This document shows positions 1 to 52,691 of a stretch of 64,000 bases of DNA, piece after piece (the stretch's first letter is position 1; every line of letters begins with the position of its first letter). A program made the position numbers and the translations under genes. Source of the DNA: Minisyncoccia bacterium (lineage in GTDB: Bacteria > Patescibacteriota > Minisyncoccia > Phycocordibacterales > Zambryskibacteraceae); contig JBASCT010000025.1 in NCBI GenBank assembly GCA_049651785.1, positions 5,563 to 69,562 on the forward strand, given 5' to 3'. The notes under the pieces are model-generated. The model was not told the DNA's origin and did not search any database. It saw nothing but the letters and a program-made list of their open reading frames with translations.

Positions 1-152
1 CCATCGGCGTTAAGACTTCCCACCTCTCCCTTGAGGACATGGCCTACCTTCTGAAGCGCTGTTCGCAGAGTTCCAACTTTTCCAAGACCTTTTTCGGCAG
101 TCTGAAAGTAAAAAATGGTTCGACCCGCTCACCACAAGATGAAAAAAGGTAA
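1..152 (+). CDS. 3' end of an upstream gene, unknown function, partial at the window edge; it overlaps the def start
   Basis: Open frame from position 3 to TAA at 150-152 with no homolog recognised. Contextual guess only: priA often precedes def-fmt. Confidence 0.25.
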   Translation, partial: IGVKTSHLSLEDMAYLLKRCSQSSNFSKTFFGSLKVKNGSTRSPQDEKR

Positions 153-1413
153 AATTCTCGATAAAGACGCACCCGTTTTAAGAAAGGTTGCGAAAGAAGT
201 TTCTCCTAAAGAAATCGGATTAAAGAAAACCCGAGAGATAATCGAGCGGATGAAAGACGCGCTCTACGGCGAGGAGGACGGAGTCGCCATTGCGGCGCCG
301 CAGCTTGGTGAGAGTTTGCGGATCTTTATGGTCCGGGGCGATGTCCTCTTTTTCGCCAAGGGCAAGAAGCCGCCGCCGGGCGAGAAGGTAGCGGATCTGG
401 TCTTTATAAACCCCGAGATTCTTAACTCCTCCAAGAAGAAGAAAAAAGTTGAAGAGGGCTGTCTCTCCATCCGCTGGCTTTACGGCAAAGTTTCCCGAAG
501 CGAGAAAATAACCATCGGCGCCTATAACAATAAGGGAGTCTGGGTAGAGCGGGGCGCCTCGGGACTTCTCGCCCAGATTTTCCAGCATGAGATAGACCAC
601 CTTGACGGCACCCTTTTCACAGACAAGGCCGAAGGTTTGAGAAACATCCCTCCCGCGAAGGAAGTGAAGTTCGCCTACTTCGGCTCATCGGAATTTTCAA
701 AATATGTCCTTGAAGAGCTTGAGGCTTTGCACTTCTCCCCCGCCTTAAATATTTCTTCGAGCAAGGAGCCCTTGCCGATTGAGGCGTTAAAGAAATTGGA
801 GGCGGACGTCTTCGTCGTCGCCTCCTTCGGGAAAATTCTGCCGAAAGAAATTCTCGAACTGCCAAAGCACGGGGTCATCAATGTCCACCCCTCTCTTCTG
901 CCGAAGCTCCGTGGCGCCTCACCGATCCAGGGCAGTATCCTTGGCGGCGCCGAGCCCGGGGTGACGATTATTAAAATGGACGAGCGAGTTGATCACGGTC
1001 CTATCCTTGCCCAGACCAAGGTCGAGATAGAGCCCTGGCCCGACCACTACGCCGCCGTCGAAGAGAAGCTCGGCCGTGCGGGCGGTCACGTCTTAGGACT
1101 CGTCCTGCCGAAGTGGCTCTCGGGAGAAATAGAGCCGAGAATCCAGAATGACGATAAAGCCACCTTCACAAAACTTATCAAAAAAGAGGACGGCCTTATC
1201 AGACCCGATGAGCCCGCGGAAGAAAGTCTCAGGAAAGTTTTTGCCTACAGCACTTGGCCCGGCGCCTACCTCATTTATAAAAACAAATTCGGCAAAGAAA
1301 TCAGAGTAATCGTGAAAGACGCCGAGATCAAAGAGGGGAAATTCGTGCCACTAAGAGTCGTGCCTGCCGGCAAGCGCGAGATGCTCTGGGTGGAGTTCTT
1401 GCGGGGCAACTAG
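115..1413 (+). CDS. def-fmt: Peptide deformylase fused in frame to methionyl-tRNA formyltransferase (Def-Fmt bifunctional protein)
   Basis: N-terminal ~185 aa carries Def motifs (GVAIAAPQLG, EGCLS, HEIDHLDG). The C-terminal part carries the Fmt N-domain (FGSSEF, VVASFGKILP, NVHPSLLPKLRGASPIQ). The 432 codons are uninterrupted. Confidence 0.8.
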   Translation: MVRPAHHKMKKGKILDKDAPVLRKVAKEVSPKEIGLKKTREIIERMKDALYGEEDGVAIAAPQLGESLRIFMVRGDVLFFAKGKKPPPGEKVADLVFINPEILNSSKKKKKVEEGCLSIRWLYGKVSRSEKITIGAYNNKGVWVERGASGLLAQIFQHEIDHLDGTLFTDKAEGLRNIPPAKEVKFAYFGSSEFSKYVLEELEALHFSPALNISSSKEPLPIEALKKLEADVFVVASFGKILPKEILELPKHGVINVHPSLLPKLRGASPIQGSILGGAEPGVTIIKMDERVDHGPILAQTKVEIEPWPDHYAAVEEKLGRAGGHVLGLVLPKWLSGEIEPRIQNDDKATFTKLIKKEDGLIRPDEPAEESLRKVFAYSTWPGAYLIYKNKFGKEIRVIVKDAEIKEGKFVPLRVVPAGKREMLWVEFLRGN

Positions 1414-9657: not shown

Positions 9658-9681
9658 AGCTCAGCTTCAGGTCTTTTTTAT
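9651..9681. terminator. Bidirectional Rho-independent terminator
   Basis: GACCTGAAGC-TCAG-CTTCAGGTC followed by TTTTTTATT. Sits between convergent genes. Confidence 0.55.
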
Positions 9682-10181
9682 TAGCGAGTTACGCAGATTG
9701 GCGCGGGGTTTGGAACAGCTGTCTCGTTGGCGGCAAGTGGTGCGGCCACGCTTATTCTGCCCGGGGCACTTGTACCAGCGCAGTCTACATCAATACGAAC
9801 GTCATAAAGAATATCTACACCGCTGACCCAGGTTGGATCGGTTGGCAGAGCTGAAATGTAAGTTGGAACTAAGCACTCCAAATTTAACCCAGAACCGCCG
9901 GTATCGCTATCAATATCGTCAGTTACTAGCGTTGGACAAGTATACGGAGTTCCGCCGATAGTAAAAGTTCCAGCAAAAACCCCCTTGTTGTCTGCCATAC
10001 GCTGACCTATGGCGTTGAGAATGGCATTAACGTCGGAAGTGCGCTGAGTGTTGCGAGCTTGGGCGAATTGTTTGGCAGGATTAATAGCGATAATCACGAT
10101 AGCAGCAAGAACGGCGATGATACCGATAACGACCAAAATTTCGATGAGAGTGAAGCCGCCCTGCTTGTTAACCTTTTTCAT
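9681..10181 (-). CDS. Type IV pilin (prepilin with class III signal), candidate major pilin of locus 1
   Basis: MKKVNKQG|FTLIEILVVIGIIAVLAAIV with conserved E5. Confidence 0.8.
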   Translation of the reverse strand: MKKVNKQGGFTLIEILVVIGIIAVLAAIVIIAINPAKQFAQARNTQRTSDVNAILNAIGQRMADNKGVFAGTFTIGGTPYTCPTLVTDDIDSDTGGSGLNLECLVPTYISALPTDPTWVSGVDILYDVRIDVDCAGTSAPGRISVAAPLAANETAVPNPAPICVTR

Positions 10182-10207
10182 AATTTTTAGTTTTTATTAA
10201 CTCCCCG

Positions 10208-10236
10208 ATACTACAACAATAGCCTGTTTTATACAA
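10208..10236 (-). promoter_or_regulatory. Candidate promoter for the pilin gene, TTGTAT-17-TAGTAT on the minus strand
   Basis: Read on the reverse complement. Lies in the 64-nt gap between pilin and vWA genes. Confidence 0.35.
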
Positions 10237-10245
10237 GGACGATTA

Positions 10246-12219
10246 TCACGGAACCTCCTTCCAAGAACCGATGAAAATATTGGGTGGAGGCGGGGGTGGC
10301 GGCGGAGGCGGAGGGGGTGCGGCGGCGCTCGGCGGCGGCGCGGCGGCGGGGCAGGCAATCTTGCCTATGGTGTCGAAGACATTGGCCATAATAGAGGCGC
10401 TTGGCGAGATGAAGAAGTGATCGCTGTCGTTATTTTCGTTGTCATACCCGCTGGGACTATCTGGATAGTTGTCGACAGAACCCGGTTGGTGCCCAAGGTG
10501 CGGCGAAGGCAGGGGCGCGGTGCTCGTCCCAGTCGCCAGAGCAGCGAGAAGCTCATGACCATCGAAGCCGTTGGGGTTTGTGCCGTAAAAAATCGTAAAG
10601 ATTTCTACCCCGCTCAATTTAGCCGTGTCGGCGGCATCTAGCGCCGCTTCTCTTGCTCCGCTATTCGGACTGCCGTTGTTTGGCGGCTCACTCGGAGTGC
10701 CGTCAGAGACCAAAAGAAGAACCTTGCCCTTGCCGGGGATGTGGCGTGGGCCATTGAGTTCGGCCGCGCCGACACTTATCGCGTCGGCCAGATGGGTGTA
10801 GCGATACGCGCCTGTCTGAGTTGTGGCTAAGTCAATCGCCCTATATAGATCGCCGTCATTGGCGATATCATCATCACCGTAGTCGCTCGTGAGCCAGCCC
10901 GCGGGAGAAGTGTATGAGACCGTCAAATAGATATGGGTTATTCTCGCGGTCCCGCCGGAATTTGTTTTTATAACACCGAATCTGGTTGTCCAATTGTTTA
11001 CCTCGTCGAGAGTCCAGGGTAGACCAGTGAAAGGATTGATGACCATGGTTCTCGTGTATGTAATGTAATTAGGGGTTAAGTTTCTGGTTATTGGATCATC
11101 CTGAAAATTGCCAATACCGTTCTCGGCTCTAATACGAAGAGAAGCTTGGCCATCAGTTTCTTTAGCAACAACTCGCACCGCCACCGATTGAATGGTTGAG
11201 CCGACCGGTAGATTCGCGTCCGGGAAGGAGAAGGTTATGGCACTATTTTGCGTCGTGCCGGAGATAAAACTCATATCGCCATTATTTGTTGCCACAGCAG
11301 TAACTTTTGAACCTGTGTTTGCTGGCCATGGACCGTCGTTAGCAACGCTCGAAGGAATAATATTGGGTGAAGTTGTGGCTGAGAAAACAATTTCTGCTTC
11401 CGCCGTGCCGCCATCCACCTCGTCGCCGAAGCGTCCGACACCCACCTGGGGCGGATTGGCGAGTAAATCATAGAGATTAAGAATGCCCTTAGCGGCGACT
11501 CTCTCATTGGTAAGATCGGTTGCCGACATACTCCCCGTCCTGTCGAGCATCATGACGACATCGGCGCAGTCGGGCGGCGGCTGGACCGTCACGGAAGCGG
11601 AGCAGACACTCGTGCCGCCAAGTCCTTCAACCTCGCCGTTATAGGTCGTGCTAACAGTCGGTGAGATAAGTTGTTGCCCACTCGTATTTGGCGAGGGTGC
11701 GATTGTGGAGCCGTCGCTCGTGTTGGTGATGGCGAATGACTGGGCGTTTGTGGAAGTGGCCCAAGAGAGCCAGACCGACTGGCCGGCGTTCGTAACGCTT
11801 GGCGTAATGGAGATTGAGCAGGCGGGCGGCGGCGGCAGGGGCGGCAAGGTCGGGTCCTGAATCACCGCGCTCGTCAGTACGCTCGAGAAGGAGCCGTTAA
11901 CTTCCGCCCAAGTTCTGATGATTCTATTGAGATTGGCGTCGGGCGCCGAAACGCTTTCTATGTAGCAGGCATCGGAGCCGATATCAACTCTCTGGTTCGT
12001 CGGGTTGTAGTGATAATTATCACGAAGATAAAGCAGGGCGACGTTGACACAGGCCTCGGCAAGCGACAGGGCCTGGCGTTTGAACTCATTCTGGAGCGCG
12101 TTGGAGCGGGCGTGGAAACTCGAGGCGCCGGCCGTTACGGTAATCATCAAAATAACTGCCGAGATAACCAAAACGGACATAAGTGCCACGAAACCTCGGC
12201 TGTGTTTATGAGTAATCAT
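10246..12219 (-). CDS. Pilus-associated large protein with a vWA domain and a Pro/Ala-rich C-terminal tail (PilY1/tip-adhesin-like)
   Basis: DCADVVMMLDRTGSM vWA MIDAS motif. Pilin-like hydrophobic N-terminus without E5. C-terminus PPPSAAAPPPPPPPPPPPP. Confidence 0.6.
   Translation of the reverse strand: MITHKHSRGFVALMSVLVISAVILMITVTAGASSFHARSNALQNEFKRQALSLAEACVNVALLYLRDNYHYNPTNQRVDIGSDACYIESVSAPDANLNRIIRTWAEVNGSFSSVLTSAVIQDPTLPPLPPPPACSISITPSVTNAGQSVWLSWATSTNAQSFAITNTSDGSTIAPSPNTSGQQLISPTVSTTYNGEVEGLGGTSVCSASVTVQPPPDCADVVMMLDRTGSMSATDLTNERVAAKGILNLYDLLANPPQVGVGRFGDEVDGGTAEAEIVFSATTSPNIIPSSVANDGPWPANTGSKVTAVATNNGDMSFISGTTQNSAITFSFPDANLPVGSTIQSVAVRVVAKETDGQASLRIRAENGIGNFQDDPITRNLTPNYITYTRTMVINPFTGLPWTLDEVNNWTTRFGVIKTNSGGTARITHIYLTVSYTSPAGWLTSDYGDDDIANDGDLYRAIDLATTQTGAYRYTHLADAISVGAAELNGPRHIPGKGKVLLLVSDGTPSEPPNNGSPNSGAREAALDAADTAKLSGVEIFTIFYGTNPNGFDGHELLAALATGTSTAPLPSPHLGHQPGSVDNYPDSPSGYDNENNDSDHFFISPSASIMANVFDTIGKIACPAAAPPPSAAAPPPPPPPPPPPPNIFIGSWKEVP
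10262..10340. repeat. GGC/GCC-rich low-complexity tract encoding a poly-Pro/Ala tail
   Basis: ggtggaggcgggggtggcggcggaggcggagggggtgcggcggcgctcggcggcggcgcggcggcgggg. Confidence 0.7.
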
Positions 12220-12704
12220 TTCCTTAAATATTTGATGGTGGAAAAGTTTTGAGAAAAAGGCAAGCCGTCACGCGTTCTTGTACTCAAGGTAAAACTTGCC
12301 TCGAGACTCTCGGGATTAATGCCGTCTCCCGTGGCCTCGGTATGGACGAAAGTCAGATTCTCCACGGAGACATTGGTGTTGTTGAGGGCTTGCGGAGGGT
12401 TGAAGTCACGAGCCAGGCGCATCTCGCCGAGAAGCAGGTCTATAACAAAGACATTGCCGTCAAAGCTTATGACAGAAAGCGTGCTCGAAGCGCCCGTAGC
12501 CCCCATGATGTCGCGAGTGTTCGAGAGAATCCAGTCAATTTTCCCCACAAGGAATGTTCCCTCCTCGAGCATCATCGCCTTCGCCTGATTGCGGCTCGAA
12601 GTTTGGCTTATGCTGTAGACGGCGGTAAGAATGCCAGACATAATAACGGCGAAAAGGGCGAGGTAAATCAAAGTTTCTATCAATGTAAAACCTCTTTTTG
12701 TCAT
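12216..12704 (-). CDS. Pseudopilin (minor pilin, prepilin-type N-terminus)
   Basis: Start MTKRG|FTLIETLIYLALFAV. Its ATG overlaps the TGA of the upstream gene (ATGA). The six-frame ORF is longer, but the internal Met fits the leader. Confidence 0.7.
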   Translation of the reverse strand: MTKRGFTLIETLIYLALFAVIMSGILTAVYSISQTSSRNQAKAMMLEEGTFLVGKIDWILSNTRDIMGATGASSTLSVISFDGNVFVIDLLLGEMRLARDFNPPQALNNTNVSVENLTFVHTEATGDGINPESLEASFTLSTRTRDGLPFSQNFSTIKYLRK

Positions 12705-14236
12705 GAGCCGGTGATAACCGTAATGTAACCGTTGCCCGAGGCGTCTGTCGAGCCGACGTAGAGATAATTCCCCTCGCAATCAAGGGTCCGCCCGACACTC
12801 GCGCCCGGTAGGGAAACGGATGAGTATTGCGTGACGCTGGAGAGATTATCGGTGCGCAAAATTTCCAAACTGTCGTTCGTCAGAAGAAAGGAAAGGTAGT
12901 CACGCACCAGAACATCGTTTATGCTCTCGTCGGTGCCGTAGCTTCCCAGCGCGGCGCCAAGGGGTCCGGTCGGGTCAGAAATATTTAAGACGTGAAATTC
13001 ATGATTTGAAGAAAAAACGGTTTCCGTTCTGCCGAGATACAGGAGGTCGCCGACGAGGGCTAAACTTTTGCCGTTGCCGGAATTGTCTCCGGCGTGGAAG
13101 CCGCTCACTCTTGCGGGACTTCTTGGATCAACCACGTTGAGAATGGTCAATTGTTCTTGCGGAGAGTTTGAGCTGTCGGTTGGATGCGCGAGATAGGCGT
13201 AGCCGCCACGGACAAAGAGAGCGTTGACGGGCTGGAGCGAGCTCACGCCGGAAGCGGGCCAAGAGCCGACCCAGAAGGGCGAGAGCGGTGTATGAACATC
13301 TATCACATGGAACTCCGGGCCGCTCGAGGTTCTTGAGAGTCCGAGGTAGACGTAGCCGTCTTTATAAAAAATACTTTTGCCGACGGCGTTGCCGGAGCCG
13401 CCGAAAGCATTAACTCTCCCTTCGGTTGAGGTTGCAAGTTTCAAACTGACAATTGCCGGATTCCAACCGCTCGTAGGAGAGCTCACGTCGATAATTTGAA
13501 GCTGGGAACAGCTTGGTCCGACGGAACAGCTATTAAAATTGGCGTCATGCGCATTGGCAACATAGGCATAGCTACCGGCAACTTTCACGGCATTCAATCC
13601 GCTTCTTGTACTGCCGGCGTTATCGGTGCCCGCCACGTAAACGGGTCGAACCGACTGATTTGTTATGTCAAAGACAAAAAATGTTTTGTCGGTATTCCCC
13701 ACTGTCGGACCAGCGGTAACGTAGAGTTTGCCCCTATGCGCGTCAAGGTCGGTGACAGGATATGTACCTGTCTCGCTTGAAGACAAAAGGTCGCTTGAAT
13801 TCAGAGCGTAGGTCTCTATTTCGGGCACTGTCCAATCACCCGAGAGAGAAGAGTTGCAGGTCGAGCCGCCAGCCGAGCTCCCGAAGTCGGTAACAAGAGT
13901 TTTAAGCTCGACACCCTGTTCAAGTCCTCGCTCGTTGGTCCAGGTCACATCAACTGTAACCTCTTTTGTCGAGAAGTCGGGGCGAAGATTAACCGAAACG
14001 GCATCGGTATAAAAACCGTCGGTGGAAGTCGTGGCGTTTACAAGACTGAAATCCTTGCGGGCAAGGGCCTGCTGTCTTTCTACCAGAGCCTGCGCCCTCT
14101 TGAGCGCCTCGGCGGTAGCCTCACTCCCCGCCAAAGAAATTTGGTTTCCGAAAGAGACAAGGACCACGGCCGAGAGAACAATAACCATGATGGCCATCGC
14201 GATAATCACCTCAAGTGTTGTAAAGCCGCTGCGCAT
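12701..14236 (-). CDS. Large pseudopilin with a beta-propeller-like repeat domain (512 aa)
   Basis: MRSG|FTTLEVIIAMAIMVIV. Repeated YxYV/LG blades. Confidence 0.65.
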   Translation of the reverse strand: MRSGFTTLEVIIAMAIMVIVLSAVVLVSFGNQISLAGSEATAEALKRAQALVERQQALARKDFSLVNATTSTDGFYTDAVSVNLRPDFSTKEVTVDVTWTNERGLEQGVELKTLVTDFGSSAGGSTCNSSLSGDWTVPEIETYALNSSDLLSSSETGTYPVTDLDAHRGKLYVTAGPTVGNTDKTFFVFDITNQSVRPVYVAGTDNAGSTRSGLNAVKVAGSYAYVANAHDANFNSCSVGPSCSQLQIIDVSSPTSGWNPAIVSLKLATSTEGRVNAFGGSGNAVGKSIFYKDGYVYLGLSRTSSGPEFHVIDVHTPLSPFWVGSWPASGVSSLQPVNALFVRGGYAYLAHPTDSSNSPQEQLTILNVVDPRSPARVSGFHAGDNSGNGKSLALVGDLLYLGRTETVFSSNHEFHVLNISDPTGPLGAALGSYGTDESINDVLVRDYLSFLLTNDSLEILRTDNLSSVTQYSSVSLPGASVGRTLDCEGNYLYVGSTDASGNGYITVITGS

Positions 14237-14237
14237 A

Positions 14238-14717
14238 TTATTTGGTCCAGAAAATCTGCCCCTCGACGCCAACGGTCGTGGTTGAAACGGAGCCCAAGGC
14301 GGCAATTACGATGTCGCCGGGCAAGAGGACGGTACCCGAGAGCGGTTGAAAAATAACTTCAGAGGGTCCCGTGAAAATCGCGCCACCCGTTATCTCAACT
14401 ACTTCGTTGTATTCGTCGGCGGGATCGAAAGAATTACCTTGGAAAATAATGAATTGCTCTGGCTCGATTCTGACGCCGTGCGGCAAGCCCGTAGTGCAGG
14501 TTGGGCCGAAACAAGTGTTAGATATGGCCAGCGCCCGTGCCCTCTGAAGAGCGCTTATTAAAAGATCCCTGTCCGAGCGGAAAATCTGTTTTTTGAAACT
14601 ATCGACCCCCATGACCATGGAAAATCCGCCGACAATCGCTACAAGACCGAGAACAACAAGAACCTCGATTAGAGTCATACCTCGGTCCTGTCTCCGGTTT
14701 TTTTTAACGCGCGACAT
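14238..14717 (-). CDS. Pseudopilin (GspH/FimT-like)
   Basis: RG|MTLIEVLVVLGLVAIV. Confidence 0.7.
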   Translation of the reverse strand: MSRVKKNRRQDRGMTLIEVLVVLGLVAIVGGFSMVMGVDSFKKQIFRSDRDLLISALQRARALAISNTCFGPTCTTGLPHGVRIEPEQFIIFQGNSFDPADEYNEVVEITGGAIFTGPSEVIFQPLSGTVLLPGDIVIAALGSVSTTTVGVEGQIFWTK

Positions 14718-14728
14718 TAGGATGGTGA

Positions 14729-15841
14729 TTATCTCTGAAGCCCTTGGGTGATGCTATAAATCGGCGTGATGATGGAGACCGCGACAAAGCCGACCATAAG
14801 ACCCATCACGACCATAAGCACCGGCTCAATCATGTTCGAGAGATTTTTGGTCGAATCCTCCACCTCGCTCTCGTACATGTCGGAGAGGTAGTTGAGAGTT
14901 TCGGAAAGGTTGCCGCTTCTCTCGCCAACCGAGATAATCTGCGAGAGGACATCGGGGAAAAGCTTTCTGTAATTTTTCATATGAGACGAGATTTTTTCAC
15001 CCCTGTTTGCCACCTCGGCTAATTTCTCAAGTTCTCGGCGATAGACAAGATTGGTCGTAGACCTTGAAGTAATCGGTAGGGCCTCGGAGAGCGTCATGCC
15101 GCCGTTTAAGAGGAGCGAGAGGGTGCGGCTGATATTGGCGAGATTGTAGTTCTGAATCATGGGGCCGATAAGCGGAGTCCTCATGGAAAGCCTGTCGAAA
15201 AAAAAGTGAAAATGTCTGTTTTTTTTGATAACGAGGCGAAAGATTATGGCCAGCACAATAAGGCCGAGAAGGAGCCAGAGTCCGTAGGCGCCCAGGAAGT
15301 TACTTAGAGCGATAAGAATTTTCGTCGTTATCGGGAGCTCGACACTAAGAGAGAGGAAAATCGGCATTATCTTCGGAAAGATAAAAACAATTAAGAGGCT
15401 CGTGATGCCGATGGTGGCAAAAGTGATAAATATGGGATAAACCATGGCCCCGACAACCTTTCTTCTCAAGAGCTGACGTTTCTTGAGTTCCTCGGCAAGG
15501 TAGGAGAGGTTGTCGCTTAAGGCACCCGTCTCTTCACCAACCGAGATAATGCTTATGGCGAAGTCGCCGAAAGCGTTCTTGAATCTTTTTAAGCTGTCGG
15601 AGAGCGAGCGGCCGCTTGTGACGTCGGCAATAATTTGTTCAAGAACCCTTCGGTAACTTCTTGAAACCGTTTGCTCTTTAATCATATTGAGCGCTTCCAC
15701 CAAGGAGACGCCGGCATTGATTAGAAACGAGAGACGTTTGGCGAAGAAAGCCTGTTCGGCGATAGAAAGTTTGCCGAATCTAAAATTTCTAAAAAAATTC
15801 TCAAAAAGCCGGGCCCTTTTCTCTGGCTGTGCGGGAGGCAT
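14729..15841 (-). CDS. pilC: Type IV pilus platform protein PilC (GspF family)
   Basis: Two T2SSF repeats (ISVGEETGALSDNL, ISVGERSGNLSETL). Confidence 0.85.
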   Translation of the reverse strand: MPPAQPEKRARLFENFFRNFRFGKLSIAEQAFFAKRLSFLINAGVSLVEALNMIKEQTVSRSYRRVLEQIIADVTSGRSLSDSLKRFKNAFGDFAISIISVGEETGALSDNLSYLAEELKKRQLLRRKVVGAMVYPIFITFATIGITSLLIVFIFPKIMPIFLSLSVELPITTKILIALSNFLGAYGLWLLLGLIVLAIIFRLVIKKNRHFHFFFDRLSMRTPLIGPMIQNYNLANISRTLSLLLNGGMTLSEALPITSRSTTNLVYRRELEKLAEVANRGEKISSHMKNYRKLFPDVLSQIISVGERSGNLSETLNYLSDMYESEVEDSTKNLSNMIEPVLMVVMGLMVGFVAVSIITPIYSITQGLQR

Positions 15842-15842
15842 C

Positions 15843-17060
15843 TTACTCGTGGATTACGCGGAGCACTTCTTCGAGCGTCGTCTCTCCTTTCTGGGCGTGC
15901 TGGAGACCGTCTTCAAGCATTGTGGTCATGCCGTTCTTGACGGCAATTTTTTTAAGTTCGGAAGCGGAAGCTTTGCGCAGGATAGCTTCTCTGATTTCGT
16001 CATCGGCGACAAGAACTTCGTTTATACAAATCCTTCCGGTGTAACCGCTCTCGTTGCACTTCTTGCAACCCCGACCGCGGTAAAGAACACTTCCGGCCTC
16101 GAGAAGATTCAGAAGTTCGGCGTTTTTGAGTCCTTCCCTCATCGCCAGAGTTATAGCGACTTCTTCTTTGCAGTGTTCACAAATTTTTCTCACCAGTCTT
16201 TGGCCGATAATAATATTCACGGTCGAGGCAACGAGATATGACTCTATACCCATATCAAGGAGCCTCGGCAGAGTGGTGGCGGCATCATTGGTGTGAAGGG
16301 TGGAGAGAAGAAGGTGCCCCGTGAGCGCCGTGTTGACGGCAATGTTGGCCGTCTCGGAATCGCGGATTTCCCCCACCATAATTATGTTCGGATCTTGGCG
16401 AAGAATGGAGCGGAGACCGTTGGCGAAAGTGAGGCCCGTTCTCGGATTAACTTGAATCTGCTCCACATCGGGCACGGCGTATTCTATCGGGTCTTCAATG
16501 GTAATAATGGAGACCTCAGGCGAATTGAGCATTTTAACAATGGTATAGAGAGTCGTAGTCTTGCCTGAGCCCGTTGGGCCGGTTGAGAGAATCATGCCGT
16601 TAGGCTTTCTCATAGCGGCAAGAATCTTTTTCCTGTCTGCCTCGGAGAAGCCGAGACTTTTTAGATCAAAATTTTCCGATTTGTCGGCAAGGAGACGAAG
16701 CACCGCATTCTCACCATGATAAGTCGGCACGATTGAAACGCGGATGTCTACGTGATTGTCGCCTGGCAGCCCCTGCCTGAGGCGGCCATCCTGGGTCGCG
16801 TTATGTTCGTCGGTGCGTAGGCGCGAGAGAATTTTTATGCGTGAAATTACTTCGGGGTGAATAGCCTTCGGAAAAGTGTAGACGTCCTGAAGAACTCCGT
16901 CGACGCGAAATCTGACGCGAACCTTGTCCGCCAGAGGATCAATGTGGATATCCGAGGCGCGAACTTCGTGCGCTCTTTCTATAAGGCAATCAAGAAGGCT
17001 GATAATCGAGAGATTTGTACCCCTCGAAAGCTCCTTTTCTACTTTGTTGGCGCTGTGCAT
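15843..17060 (-). CDS. GspE/PilB-family secretion ATPase, short form lacking the N1 domain
   Basis: Walker A GPTGSGKTT, Asp box, His box and C-terminal tetracysteine CEHC...CKKC. Confidence 0.8.
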   Translation of the reverse strand: MHSANKVEKELSRGTNLSIISLLDCLIERAHEVRASDIHIDPLADKVRVRFRVDGVLQDVYTFPKAIHPEVISRIKILSRLRTDEHNATQDGRLRQGLPGDNHVDIRVSIVPTYHGENAVLRLLADKSENFDLKSLGFSEADRKKILAAMRKPNGMILSTGPTGSGKTTTLYTIVKMLNSPEVSIITIEDPIEYAVPDVEQIQVNPRTGLTFANGLRSILRQDPNIIMVGEIRDSETANIAVNTALTGHLLLSTLHTNDAATTLPRLLDMGIESYLVASTVNIIIGQRLVRKICEHCKEEVAITLAMREGLKNAELLNLLEAGSVLYRGRGCKKCNESGYTGRICINEVLVADDEIREAILRKASASELKKIAVKNGMTTMLEDGLQHAQKGETTLEEVLRVIHE

Positions 17061-18435: not shown

Positions 18436-18508
18436 TAACTTCTCTCTGGTTTTTGGTTAAGTTTTGTGTTTTAATATCCCCTTCCCGCCCCGTCGGCGGG
18501 GTTTAATT

Positions 18509-20308
18509 ATGGAGATAAGAAATATCGCTATTATCGCTCACGTCGACCACGGCAAAACTACTTTGACGGACGCCTTGATGAGACAGACCGGCGTTGCGGA
18601 CGAAAACGTTTCCATGGACTCAAACGCACTCGAGCTCGAGCGCGGTATTACCATTTATTCCAAAAATACCTCGGTCTTTTTCAAAAATACCAAAATTAAT
18701 ATTGTGGACACGCCCGGGCACTCCGACTTCGGCTCCGAGGTTGAGCGCGTCTTACGCTCTATAGACACGGTACTCCTCGTCGTCGATGCCCAAGAAGGCC
18801 CGATGCCTCAGACACGTTTCGTTCTGAAAAAATCCTTGGAGCTTGGACTCAAGCCCATCGTGGTAATAAATAAGATAGATAAGCCTGCCGCCAGACCCGA
18901 AGCTGTGCATGAGGAGGTTCTCGAGCTTTTTATAGAACTTGGCGCCAATAATGAACAAGTTGACTTCCCGACCGTTTACGCTATCGGCCGGCAGGGCCTT
19001 GCTAAGAAAAAACTGGCTGACGAGTCGAAGGATTTGACTCCCCTTTTGGAAACCGTCCTCGAGCACGTGCCACCCGCTTCTAAAGACGGGGTGGAACAAA
19101 ATCCGGAAAGTCTTTCGGCCCAGCCCTTTAACCTCGCTTACGACAATTTCCTCGGTCGTCTGGCTATCGCGCGAATTTACGACGGTCTGGTAAAAGTCGG
19201 GCAGAAAGTTTTCGTAAAAAAACCTGACGGAAAAACTCTCGAGAGCAAAATTACGAAACTTTATACCTTCGAGGGACTGACAAGAAAAGAGGTCGGGGAA
19301 GCTGTTACGGGCGATATTGCTATGATCGCCGGCCTGTCCGATATTTATATCGGTGACACGATTACGGGAAGCGCGGACACCCTCGCCATGCCGGCCATCC
19401 TCGTCGACGAGCCGACGATTTCGCTAAACTTTCTCGTGAACGACTCCCCCTTCGCCGGGCGCTCGGGCAAATTTGTAACAGGCAGGCAGATTCGCGAGCG
19501 CCTCGAGCGCGAGCTCGAAGTCAACGTGGGGCTTCGGGTAAATTTCGAGGCGGGAGAGGTTATGAGAGTCTCCGGCCGCGGCGAGCTCCACATCGCGATT
19601 CTTCTCGAGAACATGCGCCGAGAAGGCTTCGAACTCCAGGTCTCACAACCCAAAGTTCTTGAGAAAACGGAAAACGAAAAGAGACTGGAGCCGTATGAAG
19701 AAGTGGTGATCGATGTGCCGAGTGACATGGCAAGTGCCATCATCTCTCGGCTCTCGGAGCGCCGAGGCATCATGCTTGATATGAAAGCCCACGAAAACCA
19801 GAACCGAATTATTTTCGAAATTCCGACCAGGGGTCTCCTCGGCTACCGAAACCAGTTTGTCGTCGATACTAAGGGACTCGGCATTCTCTCCTCAAGGTTC
19901 ACGGGCTTCAAGCCCTATGCCGGCGAGATGAAACATGAAAAAAGCGGCGCCATGATCTCCATGGAGAACGGTAAGGCTCTCGCCTTTGCCCTGGACAACC
20001 TCCAGGACAGAGGGGTGCTCTACATCGGGCCGAGCAACGAGGTTTACGAAGGCCAGGTTATCGGCAACACTTCCAAAGGAGAAGACCTCTATGTAAATCC
20101 GACCAAAGGAAAACAGTTGACCAACATGCGCGCCTCCGGTTCCGATGAAGGAATATTTCTTACTCCCGCTTATAAGCTCGATATTGAGCGTGCTATGGAG
20201 ATCATGAACGATGACGAATATATAGAAATCACGCCTGAAGCCGTACGCTTGAGAAAAATTTACTTAACCAAAGAAGCCCGTACCAAAGCGATGCGGAAAG
20301 CGGTATAA
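18509..20308 (+). CDS. typA: Translational GTPase TypA/BipA
   Basis: [20 protein letters not shown]-like domains. Start placed at [17 protein letters not shown]. The longer six-frame ORF reads through an upstream GC hairpin. Confidence 0.9.
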
Positions 20309-20315: not shown

Positions 20316-21083
20316 ATGAGCGGACTCGATACTTCATCCTACAAGGGAGTGAGAGACTTTTACCCCGAGGATATGAAGGTTCAAAATTATATCTTCGACA
20401 CTTGGCGCAAGGTCGCCGAGAAATTCGGCTACGCGGAGTATGGCGCCTCAATCTTAGAGCCGACCGAGCTCTATACGGAAAAATCGGGGGCTGAAATCAT
20501 TAATGAACAGACCTTTACCTTCACGGACCGCGGCGACCGCTCGGTAACGCTTCGCCCAGAGATGACCCCAACCTTGGCCCGAATGGTCGCCGCGCGCCGC
20601 CGTAACCTCAAATTTCCTCTAAGATGGTACTCAATACCGAACCTTTTTAGATACGAGCGCCCCCAGCGCGGCAGAAAGCGAGAGCACTGGCAACTGAATT
20701 GCGACCTCTTGGACGTCGAGGGCTTTGAGGGAGACAAAGAAGTGATTAAACTTGCCTGTGCGGTACTCAAAGAGTTCGGCGCTAAGGATTCCGATTTTGA
20801 AGTAAGGGTAAATAATGCCGACATTGAAAAATTCCTCGATATCGGGCCGAATTTTGTCCATGACCCGACGCTTTCGCGAGGCCAAACGTATTATACGGGA
20901 ACGGTTTTCGAAATCTTTGATACCAATAAAGAAAATTCTAGAGCCGTCGCCGGAGGCGGCAGGTACGATAACCTGCTCGAGCTCTTCGATGTCGCCCCCG
21001 TGCCGGCCGCCGGTTTCGGCATGGGCGATATTACTCTGCGCGACTTTCTTGAGACGCATGGGCTAGCCTTATGCGCAAAATAG
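20316..21083 (+). CDS. hisS: Histidyl-tRNA synthetase-like class II core with no anticodon-binding domain (255 aa)
   Basis: HisRS motifs GVRDFYPEDM, LRPEMTPTLAR, RYERPQRGRKREHWQ, GGGRYDNL, PAAGFGMG. The ORF ends 12 nt after motif 3 and overlaps the next gene. Confidence 0.7.
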   Translation: MSGLDTSSYKGVRDFYPEDMKVQNYIFDTWRKVAEKFGYAEYGASILEPTELYTEKSGAEIINEQTFTFTDRGDRSVTLRPEMTPTLARMVAARRRNLKFPLRWYSIPNLFRYERPQRGRKREHWQLNCDLLDVEGFEGDKEVIKLACAVLKEFGAKDSDFEVRVNNADIEKFLDIGPNFVHDPTLSRGQTYYTGTVFEIFDTNKENSRAVAGGGRYDNLLELFDVAPVPAAGFGMGDITLRDFLETHGLALCAK

Positions 21084-21646
21084 TTTTTGACATAGAGACG
21101 AAAAACTTTTTCTCGGATGTCGGCGGTAACGATCCGGCCCTTTTGGATCTCGCCCTCGTGGCCATTTACGACTCCGAAACAGACTCCTACCACTCGTTTC
21201 TCGAAAACGAGCTCGCGCGACTCTGGCCTTTCTTGGAACGAGCCGATATGCTTGTCGGCTTTAACTCCGACCACTTCGACATCCCCGTCTTGAACAAGTA
21301 CTACTCCGGCGACCTTTCCAAGATAAAAAGCCTCGATATCCTCAAGGAGATAAAAAACTCCTACGGACGCAGGATGCGCCTTGACCAGCTCGCCGAAGGA
21401 ACGCTTGGCAAGAATAAGTCCGGCGGGGGCGCTGACGCCATAAACTGGTGGCGCGCCGGAGATATTGAACGCGTGCGCGCCTACTGCATAGACGACGTAA
21501 AAATAACTCGAGAAATCTACGAGTATGCTCTGAAAAATAGTAAGCTCATTTTCAAAGAAGGTGGAGCTCTGAACGAAATCAAACTCGACGTCTCAGAGTG
21601 GGAGAAATCGAACGGGCATAAACTCACCTTTTCCCTCCCATTTTAA
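21071..21646 (+). CDS. DEDD-type 3'-5' exonuclease (PolB-exonuclease-like, COG3298-like)
   Basis: FDIET, LVGFNSDHFDIPVL, YCIDDV motifs. Confidence 0.6.
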   Translation: MRKIVFDIETKNFFSDVGGNDPALLDLALVAIYDSETDSYHSFLENELARLWPFLERADMLVGFNSDHFDIPVLNKYYSGDLSKIKSLDILKEIKNSYGRRMRLDQLAEGTLGKNKSGGGADAINWWRAGDIERVRAYCIDDVKITREIYEYALKNSKLIFKEGGALNEIKLDVSEWEKSNGHKLTFSLPF

Positions 21647-35208: not shown

Positions 35209-36105
35209 TTAGAGCGCTTTCTCGGCTTCGATGAATTCATCGAGGCCGCCCTGGAGCACTTTCTCGACATCCCGAATTTCCACATCGGTGCGATGGTCCT
35301 TTACCATCTTGTAAGGGTGAAGAACATAGGAGCGAATTTGGTTCCCCCATTCTATCTGAGTGGTCTTCGAGATATACATGCCTTTTTCTTTCGCCTTGCG
35401 TTCATCCTCTAACTTTCTGTAGAGCTTAGCTTCCAAGAGACGCAGGGCTTTCTCTCTGTTCTGGGCCTGCGAGCGCTCGGACTCGACATGCGCCGAAAGA
35501 TTAGTCGGAAGGTGGACGAGGCGCACCGCCGTCTCGCGTTTATTGACATTCTGGCCGCCCGGGCCGCTTGAGCGCGAGTACTCGGTCTTTAGCTCCTCCG
35601 GCGGGATTTTAACCTCTTCCTGTTTTTCAAATTTCGGAATTACTTCCACCATGGAAAAAGAGGTGTGGCGAAGTGCTTTGGCATTAAAGGGCGAGATGCG
35701 CACCAAGCGGTGAACCCCGGATTCGTTTTTAAGCGTGCCATAGACACCTGCCTGCGCAGGCGGGCTTTTGCCGCTAATTTCCAAAGTGATATTGCGGTAC
35801 CCGCCGTGGTCATTTTCGTTTTTATGGATAACAGAGTAGCGCCACTTATTTTTTTCGAAGAATTTCATATACATCTCAAGGAGAATGCGGGAGAAATCCT
35901 CGGCGTCGTCGCCGCCCGCGCCGGAAAATATTGTCATAACGGCGTCGCCCGGGTCGAATTTCCCTAAGCCCGCTAGCTCTCCCTTGAGCGACTCGTACTC
36001 GCGAAGAGTCGCCTGGGCACGAGTTTTGTCCGCCCAAAATTCTGCAGAAGACATCTCTGTCTCAAGCTCTTCAATCTTTTTCTCTAAGTCTTTTTTATTA
36101 GACAT
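35209..36105 (-). CDS. prfB: Peptide chain release factor 2, uninterrupted with no programmed frameshift
   Basis: SPF and GGQ motifs present. Confidence 0.85.
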   Translation of the reverse strand: MSNKKDLEKKIEELETEMSSAEFWADKTRAQATLREYESLKGELAGLGKFDPGDAVMTIFSGAGGDDAEDFSRILLEMYMKFFEKNKWRYSVIHKNENDHGGYRNITLEISGKSPPAQAGVYGTLKNESGVHRLVRISPFNAKALRHTSFSMVEVIPKFEKQEEVKIPPEELKTEYSRSSGPGGQNVNKRETAVRLVHLPTNLSAHVESERSQAQNREKALRLLEAKLYRKLEDERKAKEKGMYISKTTQIEWGNQIRSYVLHPYKMVKDHRTDVEIRDVEKVLQGGLDEFIEAEKAL

Positions 36106-39043: not shown

Positions 39044-39095
39044 TATGACCGCAGTGCACTACAAAGTACCAGATTTTTTGGGCTTTATCAATTTG

Positions 39096-39166
39096 TGCCG
39101 GCAAATGGAATCGGACCATTGTTTGAGGCTTATGAGTCCTCCGTTCTACCATTGAACTATGCCGGC
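39096..39166 (-). tRNA. tRNA with CAU anticodon, elongator Met or Ile2 (lysidine), with an atypical T-loop
   Basis: GCCGGCA acceptor, loop CTCATAA, G1-C72 paired, T-loop TCCGATT (C55 in place of U), 31-39 A/G mismatch. Confidence 0.55.
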
Positions 39167-39178
39167 AAGTGACCATAA

Positions 39179-39207
39179 ACTATATTATGAAATCTTGATT
39201 TTCTCAA
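39179..39207 (-). promoter_or_regulatory. Promoter TTGAGA-17-TATAGT for the minus-strand CAU tRNA
   Basis: Back-to-back with the plus-strand promoter. The -35 boxes are 1 nt apart. Confidence 0.4.
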
Positions 39208-39223
39208 GAAATGCGAGTACAAT
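39195..39223 (+). promoter_or_regulatory. Promoter TTGATT-17-TACAAT for the plus-strand initiator-like tRNA
   Basis: tRNA 5' end lies 9 nt after the -10. Confidence 0.45.
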
Positions 39224-39231
39224 CTGCGAAC

Positions 39232-39305
39232 AGCGGGTTGGAGGAGTAGTACCTCGACAGGCTCATAACCTGTAGGCATCCGTGCAAATCGGATACCCGC
39301 AACCA
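39232..39305 (+). tRNA. Initiator-like tRNA-fMet(CAU)
   Basis: A1/A72 mismatch, A11:U24, U8, loop CTCATAA, CCA encoded, unusual T-loop TGCAAAT. Confidence 0.5.
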
Positions 39306-43750: not shown

Positions 43751-44305
43751 CTAGTATGTGGCTCTAACGGCGCGCTCAACCCTCCTCGGGTTTGAGACAC
43801 TGCAGGTGTTATAGCCTTTTGATTCGATTTTTGTTCTTAGAGTACGTGGAGCCGAAATGGTGTACCACTTGGCGATACTTACCGTTACGCAGTAAGAATC
43901 CGTCGGGGTGAAATCGAAAGTTATCGTGGTTGTGCCGAAGCCCGTCCCGCCATTTACGACGGGAGCAACATTAATAACTTTGCCGTTGCAGTTTATGGGG
44001 TTCGTCGGAGTCGAGGTCGAAAAGGCGCTAAGGCCGCTCGGGTTTCTAACATCCCAGTAGAGAGCGCACTCCATCCCCGAGTCGGCGGCGTAGAAGGCGT
44101 GTTGCGAGGCTTCGCCGGCATTCGCGATAACCAAGTGTCTCACGGCGAGATTTATCACACCGGCCGCCACGAGACTGATTGTCCCGACAATAATAACTGC
44201 GACAAAAATTGTAAAACCTGCGGTTTTGCTTTTGCTTCGCTCAGTCTCTGTGGAAGATTTCTTCCACATTCTTTCGCTGCCAAAAGTGAAGCCTCGGTTT
44301 TTCAT
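43751..44305 (-). CDS. Pilus-associated hypothetical protein with a non-canonical pilin-like N-terminus
   Basis: KTAGFTIFVAVIIVGTISLVAAGV, lacking E5. Confidence 0.45.
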   Translation of the reverse strand: MKNRGFTFGSERMWKKSSTETERSKSKTAGFTIFVAVIIVGTISLVAAGVINLAVRHLVIANAGEASQHAFYAADSGMECALYWDVRNPSGLSAFSTSTPTNPINCNGKVINVAPVVNGGTGFGTTTITFDFTPTDSYCVTVSIAKWYTISAPRTLRTKIESKGYNTCSVSNPRRVERAVRATY

Positions 44306-44871
44306 GGCCAGTTTAAAATATTTTCCCGCGCCTGGAACTCTTGGTTTGTAGAGCCGTGCATCCAGTTAATGGTGACCAGAACGGAAATTTCTTTGGCATC
44401 AACTTGAGTGATAATAATTTCGCGTCGAAATTTCGTCTCGCTCCAAGCCCCGTTGTGTCCATAGAAAAGATTGGTGGCGTCCTGACGAAGCAAGGGGCAA
44501 GACTCGATGGCGCTGCAACGCGTCGGCACAGTCGAGTTTATCGGGTCAACAATGCAGGCATTACCGAACCAGCAGGGGTCATTAATGTTTGAGGCAATGC
44601 CCGTAAGCCAGTTCCTGTTATTGAGCGCGTTCTCGTCGCGCATGTTTCGGATAAATTCGAACCCCTCTTGAGCAAGGTAAAATGCGGTTATCTGGTCGCG
44701 TGAAAAAGTGTAGGACGAAATCGCGGTCCTAACAGCGCTTGAAACTCCTGTAATGGCCGTGATGAGAATCACGATAGCGACTAGGCTTTCGACGAGAGAG
44801 AATCCCCGCCCGAACGACTTTCGTCGTTCTGTCGGGCGGGCGTTTTGCTTTGTGTGTGTTTCTTTTGTCAT
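44302..44871 (-). CDS. Pseudopilin (PilV/GspI-like) with an unusually long 29-aa leader containing a palindromic-element insertion
   Basis: ...RRKSFGRG|FSLVESLVAIVILIT. Start placed at the internal Met (MTKETH), ATGA-coupled to the upstream gene. Confidence 0.6.
   Translation of the reverse strand: MTKETHTKQNARPTERRKSFGRGFSLVESLVAIVILITAITGVSSAVRTAISSYTFSRDQITAFYLAQEGFEFIRNMRDENALNNRNWLTGIASNINDPCWFGNACIVDPINSTVPTRCSAIESCPLLRQDATNLFYGHNGAWSETKFRREIIITQVDAKEISVLVTINWMHGSTNQEFQARENILNWP
44805..44840. repeat. GC-rich palindromic element copy, 36 nt, in frame within the prepilin leader coding region
   Basis: CCCGCCCGAACGACTTTCGTCGTTCTGTCGGGCGGG. It encodes ARPTERRKSFGR. Confidence 0.75.
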
Positions 44872-44872
44872 A

Positions 44873-45427
44873 TTATCTGTCCACGGCGCGCTGGGAGACA
44901 AGGGTCTGGATGGCAAACCTCGTTGTCCCCTTGGCACCCGTTGCGCCCACCCTACCCCTCACGATAATAACCGTCTTCGGCTGAAAGGCGTCGGCTGCAA
45001 TGGCGCCCAGCGTATAGAAAGTGAGGCTCTCAATCGCTATTTCCGCCCCTGTCACGGCAATCCAAGAGGCCGAGGCGCCGTCCTGTTTTTCAACCACGGT
45101 GCCATTGAGGCGATAAGCTATTTGGTCTCCGCTACTTGAAAGGAAGGTAAAGAACGAGTTGCCGGTAGGACAATTCTGGGGCACGGTCAAGGTACCAGTT
45201 GAGCCGCAATGATAGACTCTGCCGAAACGGATTTCACGCGACATGCTCTCGAGAGCGATATTGAGATTGGAGAGGGCCGCTTTCGTGTTCTTGGCCTTGG
45301 TGTTGGAGTTAAAGGTGCTGAAGATGGCGCCCATGGCGATAGTCATAACCGTGATGAAGACCGTTATCGCCACGATGAGCTCAATTATCGTGAAGCCCTT
45401 ATTGAGTTTTTTATTTCTCACTCCCAT
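44873..45427 (-). CDS. Pseudopilin (GspG/PilE-like)
   Basis: NKG|FTIIELIVAITVFITV. Confidence 0.7.
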   Translation of the reverse strand: MGVRNKKLNKGFTIIELIVAITVFITVMTIAMGAIFSTFNSNTKAKNTKAALSNLNIALESMSREIRFGRVYHCGSTGTLTVPQNCPTGNSFFTFLSSSGDQIAYRLNGTVVEKQDGASASWIAVTGAEIAIESLTFYTLGAIAADAFQPKTVIIVRGRVGATGAKGTTRFAIQTLVSQRAVDR

Positions 45428-46072
45428 TTACTTTGTCGAAATTTGACCCGTGGTGTAGACGGTGACCCCACTCGTCGCGGTCGTATTGGGGCTCCTGAAA
45501 ATAATTCTTGCCCCTACCATATTCGGATTGGTGACTTGACCCCCGCTTGAGTTGAAAAAGATGAGCTGGGCCTCGGTATTCGGGCGATTGAAGGTAATGT
45601 CGACTCTTCTCGGGGAGTTGGGCGGACCGCACTCGCTTGTGGCGGGAGCGATAATCATGCAAACCGCTTCGATATAAACTCCGCGTAAAATGTTTATCCG
45701 TTCGAGACACTCGTTGGCACCTCCTATGACACACGTCCAGTCACCATTGTAGAAATCATTATTATTGCGATCCGCAAAGTATAGATAGGCTGTAGGAGAA
45801 CCATCATCATCGTCATTAATCAGGCTGAAGGTAAGACCATAGGAAGCGGAGAATTCACCCGAGCCCGTGGAGAATTCTCTGACCCCAGAGCCGTACGCCT
45901 GAGCTTGAGCAATCCTGAGGCTCGTGTCTTCGGCAAGATTGTTGAGCACAAGTCTGTCGTTATACTTCGACTGATTCAAAAGAAGAACGGTGAGAATCAC
46001 GGTCGTGATAGTAATGGTCACCATCAGTTCCGTAAAGGTGAATCCTTTATTTTTCTCAGATAGGAAGGACAT
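45428..46072 (-). CDS. Pseudopilin (GspH/FimT-like)
   Basis: NKG|FTFTELMVTITITTV. Confidence 0.7.
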   Translation of the reverse strand: MSFLSEKNKGFTFTELMVTITITTVILTVLLLNQSKYNDRLVLNNLAEDTSLRIAQAQAYGSGVREFSTGSGEFSASYGLTFSLINDDDDGSPTAYLYFADRNNNDFYNGDWTCVIGGANECLERINILRGVYIEAVCMIIAPATSECGPPNSPRRVDITFNRPNTEAQLIFFNSSGGQVTNPNMVGARIIFRSPNTTATSGVTVYTTGQISTK

Positions 46073-46859
46073 GGTTGAAGTTGAGGTGGAAGAAGAGTGC
46101 GAGCCAGGCGCCTAAGACTATCGCGGGGCCGAAGGGCACTTCAGACTTCATTGTAAGGCCTTTATCGCTCTTTATAAAGCCTGCCTGCGCAGGCAGGCCG
46201 AGTTTTACAACAAAAAAGAGAATGAGCGCCGCCAGAGCGCCAAGCCAGAAGGCAAAGATTATGGCCGAGAAACCTTTTGCCGCGCCGAGAAGTAGACCCA
46301 CGGAGAGTCCGAGTTTCGCGTCGCCGAAACCCATCGCCCGACCGCGCGAAAAGAGCCAGATGGAGCCGAAAAAGACGAAAATGATCGGTCCCGCGAGAAG
46401 GTCCAAGAAGTAAGGCGTAGGAAGTGAGAAGTAAGAATACATACGATACCCAAGAGCGAGTAAAATGCAGGTATAGACGAGCGTGTCGGGAATGATTTTA
46501 TGGCGTATATCATAAATAGTAATGACAATGTAGAGAGAAAAAACCGCAACCAGAACAAGATAATTCAGAAATGACAAAAGATTTAACGGATCAATAATGT
46601 AGAAAAGGGAGGCAAAGATAAGTCCTGTCCAAATTTCAATTATCGGATACTGCCAGGAAATCGGTGCCTGACAGCCGGAACACTTTCTTTTTAAGAGAAA
46701 AAAGCTCAAAACCGGGATAAGTTCGTGCCAAGAAAGTGTCTTGGCGCAATTTGGACAGGCCGAGCGACCGCCAAAGTTTTTTGAATCCCAACGAAGCCCG
46801 ATGACATTCAAGAAACTCCCGACAATGGTACCCAAAACAAAAAGGATGACTAAGGTCAT
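46056..46859 (-). CDS. pilD: Prepilin peptidase PilD (A24 family)
   Basis: N-terminal CPNC...CSGC zinc motif, eight TM helices, GFGDAKL. Confidence 0.85.
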   Translation of the reverse strand: MTLVILFVLGTIVGSFLNVIGLRWDSKNFGGRSACPNCAKTLSWHELIPVLSFFLLKRKCSGCQAPISWQYPIIEIWTGLIFASLFYIIDPLNLLSFLNYLVLVAVFSLYIVITIYDIRHKIIPDTLVYTCILLALGYRMYSYFSLPTPYFLDLLAGPIIFVFFGSIWLFSRGRAMGFGDAKLGLSVGLLLGAAKGFSAIIFAFWLGALAALILFFVVKLGLPAQAGFIKSDKGLTMKSEVPFGPAIVLGAWLALFFHLNFNHVLPI

Positions 46860-46908
46860 CCTTTAAGTATAACAAACCTGTCTGCGCAGGCGGGCGGCGG
46901 GTGATTGA

Positions 46909-47346: not shown

Positions 47347-47372
47347 TTTATTGTTAGCTTTTGGCTATTGTA

Positions 47373-47855: not shown

Positions 47856-47883
47856 GCGTGAGATTTTGGCCCTAATTAAGATT

Positions 47884-48327: not shown

Positions 48328-48403
48328 AATTTAATGATTTTCCTAATTTTTGGCTTATTTTATAAATCACCTTTAGAGTGAATACAGACATTATACTCTA
48401 CAT

Positions 48404-49606: not shown

Positions 49607-49635
49607 CTGGATTATTTATAGTGAGCATGATCGAA

Positions 49636-50703: not shown

Positions 50704-50709
50704 TGGGTT

Positions 50710-51090: not shown

Positions 51091-51097
51091 ATGTTTA

Positions 51098-52687: not shown

Positions 52688-52691
52688 CGTT

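Follow-up and report, generated by a model that had tools for sequence, protein, structure and literature searches.

This analysis concerns a 64,000-nucleotide stretch of contig JBASCT010000025.1 (assembly GCA_049651785.1), referred to here as the window, and in particular a minimal hisS gene on its plus strand at 20316..21083, where an open reading frame (ORF) with an ATG start encodes a histidyl-tRNA synthetase (HisRS) of only 255 amino acids (aa). The source is a metagenome-assembled genome of a groundwater Minisyncoccia (Parcubacteria/Paceibacteria, Patescibacteria), and the protein is entered at NCBI as MGB3922131.1 under the name "ATP phosphoribosyltransferase regulatory subunit". It is nevertheless recognized by the Pfam family tRNA-synt_His (E = 2.4e-37), in a match broken into two separate stretches, and its assignment to HisRS is shared by AlphaFold2 modelling and Foldseek comparison. 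Upstream lies the gene for the translational GTPase TypA/BipA (18464..20308, plus strand), which ends 7 nt before hisS and is the conserved upstream neighbour in genomes that carry the short form. Downstream, also on the plus strand, an ORF at 21071..21646 starts inside the 3′ end of hisS, with an overlap of 13 nt (ATGCGCAAAATAG), and encodes a 191-aa DEDD/RNase_H_2 (PolB-exonuclease-like) exonuclease, identified with Pfam and PHROGs and akin to the exonuclease domain found in family B polymerases. An earlier note on this DNA had described both the 255-aa HisRS core and its 13-nt overlap with a DEDD exonuclease gene, and both descriptions are confirmed.

The three class II motifs and the HisRS-specific motifs that the earlier note claimed can all be located in the 255-aa protein. 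The motif 1 region (residues 41–56, EYGASILEPTELYTEK; 20436..20483), which in class II enzymes provides the dimer interface, contains P49, conserved in at least 90% of sequences. It is followed by the DRGDR loop (residues 71–75) and the segment TLRPEMTP (residues 78–85), together at 20526..20570, in which R80, E82 and T84 are invariant. Motif 2 (NLFRYERPQRGRKREHWQLNCD) and its loop occupy residues 109–130 (20640..20705) and retain R112, E114, R115, Q117, R118, R120, R122 and Q126. The HisA motif, RGQTYYTG (20877..20900), differs from the RGFDYYTG of forms that keep the insertion domain, the change from RGFDYY to RGQ(T/A)YY being found in every form that lacks both domains discussed below. The HisB motif, GGGRYDN, lies at 20952..20972, and motif 3, AAGFGMGDITLRDFLE, at 21006..21053, all of these features being on the plus strand and placed by alignment. 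By our delimitation nine residues separate motif 3 from the stop codon, against the 12 counted in the earlier note, a trivial difference.

What the protein lacks is best seen against solved structures. The closest of these by sequence is the HisRS of Thermoplasma acidophilum (1wu7, E = 8e-60), followed by trypanosome HisRS, and the alignment with 1wu7 falls into two blocks, in which residues 5–172 of the query correspond to residues 5–169 and residues 178–246 to residues 255–322. This two-block pattern implies that an insertion domain of about 85 aa has been deleted in addition to the anticodon-binding domain (ABD) of about 100 aa; the deletion of the insertion domain, between motif 2 and HisA, is a second loss, which was overlooked in the earlier note. 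Where relatives carry an insertion domain of 75–110 aa, alignments place a linker of 21 residues (NNADIEKFLDIGPNFVHDPTL; 20811..20873, plus strand). Each of the 123 doubly deleted proteins recovered from large searches has precisely 61 residues from motif 2 to HisA, against 110–200 in relatives, and a tail of 36–44 residues after HisB. Profile hidden Markov models (HMMs) built from 83 full-length relatives, one for the ABD and one for the insertion domain, were run with filters off against all six reading frames of the entire window and found no match (all E > 0.8), and the silence of the ABD model bears out the claim that no ABD is encoded in any nearby frame. The Pfam model HGTP_anticodon (PF03129) was not found in the 255-aa protein and is present in only one of the 142 aligned members of the family. 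A Pfam scan of 53 window ORFs, each of 150 aa or more, turned up no second HisRS, no stand-alone ABD and no HisG, and about 6 kb of sequence extending the contig beyond the window held no relevant gene.

A protein of such unusual length invites the suspicion of an artefact or a pseudogene, whether through frameshift, misassembly or recent truncation, and its length is the sole feature that speaks for one. In a large homolog search of 5.8 billion proteins, over 120 clusters of 253–258 aa with the doubly deleted architecture were recovered at 75–97% identity; they stem from independent assemblies (NCBI, JGI, ENA and Logan) and have the same stop position. The downstream gene, which starts within the 3′ end of hisS, is intact and conserved. 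Comparison of the window gene with seven GTDB relatives and one metagenome homolog gave a proportion of synonymous differences (pS) of 0.81–0.95, which is saturated, against a nonsynonymous proportion (pN) of 0.14–0.26, a combination that points to strong purifying selection. On these grounds frameshift, misassembly, recent truncation and pseudogene formation are ruled out, and the chance that the short gene is an artefact is in our estimation negligible. The specific concern of the earlier note, that a frameshift might hide a downstream domain, is refuted by the conserved stop position, shared by hundreds of relatives, and by the lack of domain signal in any frame. Nor is the doubly deleted form the only one to lack an ABD: a second large search returned more than 115 clusters of proteins of 296–348 aa that lack the ABD and keep the insertion domain, from Taylorbacteria, Paceibacterota, Pacebacteria and others; counted at 90% identity, the ABD-less architectures together make up more than 240 clusters.

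By position, the window gene is orthologous to the full-length hisS (410–435 aa) of related Parcubacteria. The nearest representatives of clusters at 50% identity are full-length HisRS of about 430 aa, with 55–65% identity, and three of these (P0125, P0272 and P0387, of 435, 427 and 415 aa), which all carry HGTP_anticodon, are encoded directly upstream of the same exonuclease of 191–195 aa, with DsbA one or two genes further on. Two proteins of 323–329 aa in which the insertion domain is kept and the ABD is absent (P0121 and P0285) occupy the same exonuclease-adjacent locus. In genomes with the short form, the gene order runs BipA, hisS (254/255 aa), exonuclease, DsbA, DUF2779, sigma-70, DnaG, RpoC and RpoB.

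Four architectures share the hisS locus, and all four were counted in a scan of GTDB species genomes with the peptide patterns GGGRYDNLL and LRPEMTP[TS]L, from which the best 80 loci were taken and 68 could be classified. The full form, with ABD and insertion domain, accounts for 46 of the 68, with the exonuclease adjacent in 25 of these 46. The ABD-less form that keeps the insertion domain was seen at 13 loci, a few of them at contig ends, with the exonuclease adjacent in 9; the doubly deleted form at seven loci, with the exonuclease adjacent in every one; and the form that keeps the ABD and lacks the insertion domain at two (L027 and L029), again both with the exonuclease. These last two HisRS, of 361–364 aa, lie in a BipA-hisS-exonuclease locus, and one of them (L027, 10001..11065) belongs to a complete chromosome of 681,747 bp (OY970290.1), so that the core evidently tolerates loss of the insertion domain. 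The same combination, ABD kept and insertion domain absent, occurs in a GC-rich protein of 322 aa (P0199) from an unrelated soil metagenome. The exonuclease overlaps hisS by 8–13 nt in the short forms and is the downstream partner in all four architectures; because it also adjoins full-length HisRS, the partnership must predate the domain losses. No fusion of HisRS with the exonuclease was found among long homologs, and no stand-alone ABD was found within 10 kb on either side of hisS in 16 ABD-less GTDB loci.

The order in which the domains were lost was approached with a tree on 217 shared core columns, for which eleven doubly deleted sequences were sampled. All eleven, including the divergent proteins of 266–271 aa at L021–L023, form one clade with 98% bootstrap, and this clade is nested among Parcubacteria HisRS. 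Its grouping with the ABD-less forms that keep the insertion domain has 54% bootstrap, and the insertion-less, ABD-keeping forms are placed elsewhere in the tree with weak support. The divergent L021–L023 and the ABD-keeping L027/L029 each retain one short helix of the insertion region, with a similar deletion boundary, and have in common with the short forms the BipA-hisS arrangement. Whichever loss came first, one of the domains, if not both, was lost on more than one occasion. The core is 66–71% identical to the nearest full-length and the nearest ABD-less forms alike, with no accelerated divergence. ABDs of the HisRS family share only 20–25% identity throughout, and since this figure is the same everywhere, the idea that the ABD is additionally relaxed in the nearest full-length relatives is not borne out.

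The NCBI name of the protein is that of HisZ, the regulatory subunit of ATP phosphoribosyltransferase, and the possibility that we are dealing with a HisZ, as named by NCBI/PGAP, or with a HisZ-like paralog, as the earlier note put it, has some arguments in its favour: HisZ is the known paralog of HisRS without an ABD; most ABD-less relatives of the protein bear the same name at NCBI; and the hisZ model TIGR00443 is matched at 156.5 bits. That score, however, is below both the model's cut-off of 271.65 and the 248.7 bits scored by the hisS model. HisZ "does not possess adenylation activity" (PMC9437257), whereas the adenylation residues are invariant here. The gene, moreover, sits at the hisS locus as the positional ortholog of hisS, and no hisG or other his gene occurs among the 53 Pfam-scanned ORFs of the window. 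A HisZ identity is therefore unsupported and, in our view, very improbable. The name is nonetheless widespread: the NCBI pipeline has given it to P0019, P0022, P0029, P0044, P0077, P0278, P0279, P0317, P0320, P0324 and others, and the same ABD-less proteins are called histidyl-tRNA synthetase by JGI. The naming of ABD-less Patescibacteria HisRS as HisZ is very probably a systematic mis-annotation affecting hundreds of entries, and it distorts metabolic reconstructions, in that a spurious gene of histidine biosynthesis is added and hisS is apparently removed.

Residues known from the complex of Thermus thermophilus (Tt) HisRS with tRNA-His (PMC4357726) were mapped through a phmmer alignment to 4rdx. 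In the motif-2 loop the numbering is identical to that of Tt, and E114, R115, Q117, R118 (Tt K118), R120 and R122 are retained; K10 stands in for Tt R7; R188-G189 and Y192-Y193 belong to HisA, and G213–D218 to HisB; and the DRGDR loop corresponds to the cross-subunit 70′DRG72′/G72′G73′ pocket that receives G-1 in the Tt enzyme. Conservation was assessed in 35 short, 51 ABD-less and 101 full-length sequences. In both reduced classes R80, E82, T84, R112, E114, Q117, R120, R122, Q126, R188, G189, Y192, Y193 and G213–R216 are 100% conserved, K10 is conserved at 94–100%, and position 115 is always R or K. In the Tt complex, R7, R115, Q117 and R122 contact the tRNA and not the adenylate, and E114 is essential for aminoacylation (PMC4357726). 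The retention of residues that touch the acceptor stem or A76 argues that the substrate is still the acceptor end of a tRNA.

The reduced forms also differ from full-length enzymes at a small number of positions. Position 121, in the motif-2 loop, is K or R in 100% of ABD-less forms, whereas 68% of the full-length enzymes have L there; position 99 is K in 100% of ABD-less forms against 20% of full-length ones; and position 95 is R in 98% against 21%, positions 95 and 99 lying within the segment that matches the Gly94′–Pro99′ contact with the D-stem in the Thermus complex (PMC4357726). Judging from these substitutions, the basic residues K/R121, K99 and R95 may partly offset the lost RNA-binding surface. 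A general gain of positive charge after loss of the ABD was considered as well and is rejected, the change being confined to positions 121, 99 and 95. The predicted fold is that of a HisRS catalytic domain. An AlphaFold2 model from a shallow alignment was poor (pLDDT 70.8) and was superseded by one from a 142-sequence alignment (pLDDT 88.1, pTM 0.88), for which Foldseek returned TMq values of 0.84–0.87 to HisRS catalytic domains and of 0.86 to 1wu7/3hri.

Taken with the locus and the intact core, these residues lead us to the reading that the organism's own hisS was probably reduced in place to its class II catalytic core, and that the product would be a working HisRS that is blind to the anticodon. 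The earlier note had offered charging of tRNA-His without anticodon recognition as one of two options, and this part of its proposal is now the best-supported reading, although it is still something that we infer. The enzyme would dimerise through motif 1, form histidyl-adenylate, and then transfer histidine to A76 of tRNA-His. The tRNA would be chosen solely at its acceptor end, by way of its 5′ phosphate, its first base pairs and the extra nucleotide G-1, which pairs with the discriminator base, with contacts supplied by the arginines of the motif-2 loop, by the N-terminal K10 and by the DRG loop of the partner subunit, and the anticodon would go unread. The strong conservation of the stripped form in relatives suggests that it probably charges tRNA-His in this way. 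There is said to be a laboratory precedent, in that Augustine and Francklyn reportedly found in 1997 that an engineered N-terminal catalytic fragment of Escherichia coli HisRS was active, including in tRNA charging (as cited in PMC7373986). That fragment reportedly keeps the insertion domain and is much less efficient, but together with HisRS urzymes it indicates that a core can in principle suffice. The known biochemistry of the family is also accommodating: the major determinants for HisRS are the G-1:N73 pair and the 5′ phosphate, the anticodon being weak; micro- and minihelices with G-1:C73 are good substrates; and single mutants in the contacts of the insertion domain retain at least half of their activity (PMC4357726).

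Several observations weigh against such an enzyme. In the T. thermophilus complex the ABD contributes much of the buried surface and the insertion domain clamps the acceptor stem (PMC4357726), and without either domain binding should be considerably weaker. No rise in the net charge of the core accompanies the losses, the value standing at −6.0 in the short forms against −1.3 in full-length ones. Tt G73, the second glycine of the G-1 pocket, is replaced by Asp in 54–71% of ABD-less forms; the resulting G-D pocket (Tt G72-G73) is also found in 20% of full-length relatives, so that this point carries little weight either way. The hisS model TIGR00442 reaches its score over two stretches and remains below the NCBIfam cut-off of 286.75, although scores below cut-off for both the hisS and the hisZ models are to be expected of a protein with two domains missing. 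Searches for a tRNA-His gene in the window, in the extension of about 6 kb and in 97 loci found none. Finally, none of the best 80 GTDB loci comes from a genome with two members of the family, yet the patterns used would miss a HisRS of bacterial type.

This last point bears on the alternative that the window gene is a retired or repurposed hisS, in which a complete HisRS encoded elsewhere does the charging and the core makes His-AMP for some other acceptor or for regulation, much as PoxA/EpmA, YadB and the amino acid:carrier-protein ligases do. It is known that truncated, ABD-less paralogs of aminoacyl-tRNA synthetases can take on roles outside translation (PMC9437257), and the GTDB check for a second HisRS was made with family-specific patterns and on the best 80 loci. 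On the other hand, the reduced gene is the positional ortholog of the sole HisRS that sister lineages were seen to carry here; the invariant residues extend beyond those needed for the adenylate to those that contact the acceptor stem; the core, with equal identity to full-length and ABD-less forms, shows no sign of accelerated divergence; no two of the 80 loci share a genome; and redundant synthetases would rarely be kept in strongly reduced genomes. We regard a repurposed core as unlikely, though worth keeping in mind.

The exonuclease beside hisS raises a further possibility, namely that the enzyme is split and that an ABD or another tRNA-binding module acts in trans, perhaps through the coupled exonuclease. 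Split genes for aminoacyl-tRNA synthetases are known in other reduced genomes. The overlap of 8–13 nt between hisS and the exonuclease gene in the short forms, and their adjacency across all architectures, would fit such an arrangement, and ABDs diverge so far from one another, at 20–25% identity, that a distant free-standing copy could easily escape notice. No ABD-like ORF was found, however, in the 64-kb window or within 10 kb on either side of the 16 ABD-less GTDB loci, the partnership with the exonuclease is older than the domain losses, and long homologs include no HisRS-exonuclease fusion; a split enzyme is, on balance, quite improbable. A bolder variant would join the HisRS core and the DEDD exonuclease into a two-protein tRNA-His module, a new kind of trans-assisted split synthetase in which the exonuclease would supply tRNA binding, end-processing or proofreading in place of the lost domains, and this too we consider improbable.

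Other parts of the window also hold features of some interest. At 115..1413 (plus strand), a 432-aa ORF fuses a peptide deformylase (residues 13–175) to a Met-tRNA formyltransferase (residues 216–406), and two related contigs (L004 and L006) carry a 432-aa gene with the same deformylase and formyltransferase Pfam domains. The peptide chain release factor encoded at 35209..36105 (minus strand) has only 298 aa, and its PCRF match starts at profile position 88 of 194; it appears to be N-terminally shortened, and thus another reduced translation factor. Two tRNA-Met(CAT) genes stand head to head on opposite strands at 39095..39305, with 66 nt between them. A large share of the window is taken up by two separate clusters of type IV pilus or type II secretion system (T2SS)-like genes, at 9681..17060 and 43751..55368, which include several prepilin-type N-methyl proteins, T2SSE, T2SSF, PilM and a prepilin peptidase of family A24. 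Over the last part of the window, 56000..64000, the GC content drops from about 0.50–0.55 to 0.39–0.44, and this stretch encodes a Fic protein (56611..57483), a SocA/Panacea antitoxin (58237..58779), a ResIII helicase (58974..61313) and an N6/N4 DNA methylase (61303..63000), with a tRNA-Ser(GCT) at its end (63168..63255); it resembles a defence island that has integrated at a tRNA gene.

It remains to place the minimal HisRS among known systems. With the archaeal or eukaryote-like class IIa HisRS (1WU7 and Trypanosoma brucei 3HRI; TIGR00442, PF13393 plus PF03129) it shares the core fold, the motifs and the contact residues, but it has 255 aa against 410–435 in the canonical enzymes, lacks the insertion domain and HGTP_anticodon, and cannot contact the anticodon. 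HisZ (TIGR00443) is likewise derived from HisRS and ABD-less, but is without adenylation and partners HisG in histidine biosynthesis; unlike HisZ, the protein described here has a fully conserved active site and lies at the hisS locus. HisRS urzymes, described by Li and colleagues in 2011 (as cited in PMC7373986), are reportedly catalytic-domain-only laboratory constructs that activate histidine. The urzymes and the engineered E. coli fragment are both products of the laboratory, whereas the present protein is natural, smaller than the fragment and conserved across hundreds of lineages. YadB/Glu-Q-RS, PoxA/EpmA and the amino acid:carrier-protein ligases are, like it, truncated cores that keep amino-acid activation, but these are extra copies, beside a complete synthetase, with new acceptors; here the housekeeping locus and the acceptor-stem residues have been kept. 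A different rewiring is known from Caulobacter crescentus, whose HisRS has lost recognition of G-1 and relies on the anticodon (PMC3064791, PMC4357726); both cases would be lineage-specific changes in the recognition of tRNA-His, with opposite solutions, in that here it is the reading of the anticodon that is lost. Full-text literature searches found no description of a naturally ABD-less HisRS in the candidate phyla radiation (CPR)/Patescibacteria, and HisZ is the sole HisRS paralog named in recent reviews (PMC9437257).

The protein is a candidate for the smallest natural HisRS, and the four architectures at one locus amount to a natural deletion series for synthetase biochemistry. The system also offers a natural test object for ideas about urzymes, about the late addition of anticodon-binding domains and about the sufficiency of G-1:C73. 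If the reading advanced here is true, a 254-aa anticodon-blind HisRS would be a compact start for orthogonal pairs. Should it be the only HisRS in the cell, it would represent a natural synthetase working in vivo with a class II core alone, and in these organisms the histidine code would be enforced solely by the "operational RNA code" of the acceptor end.

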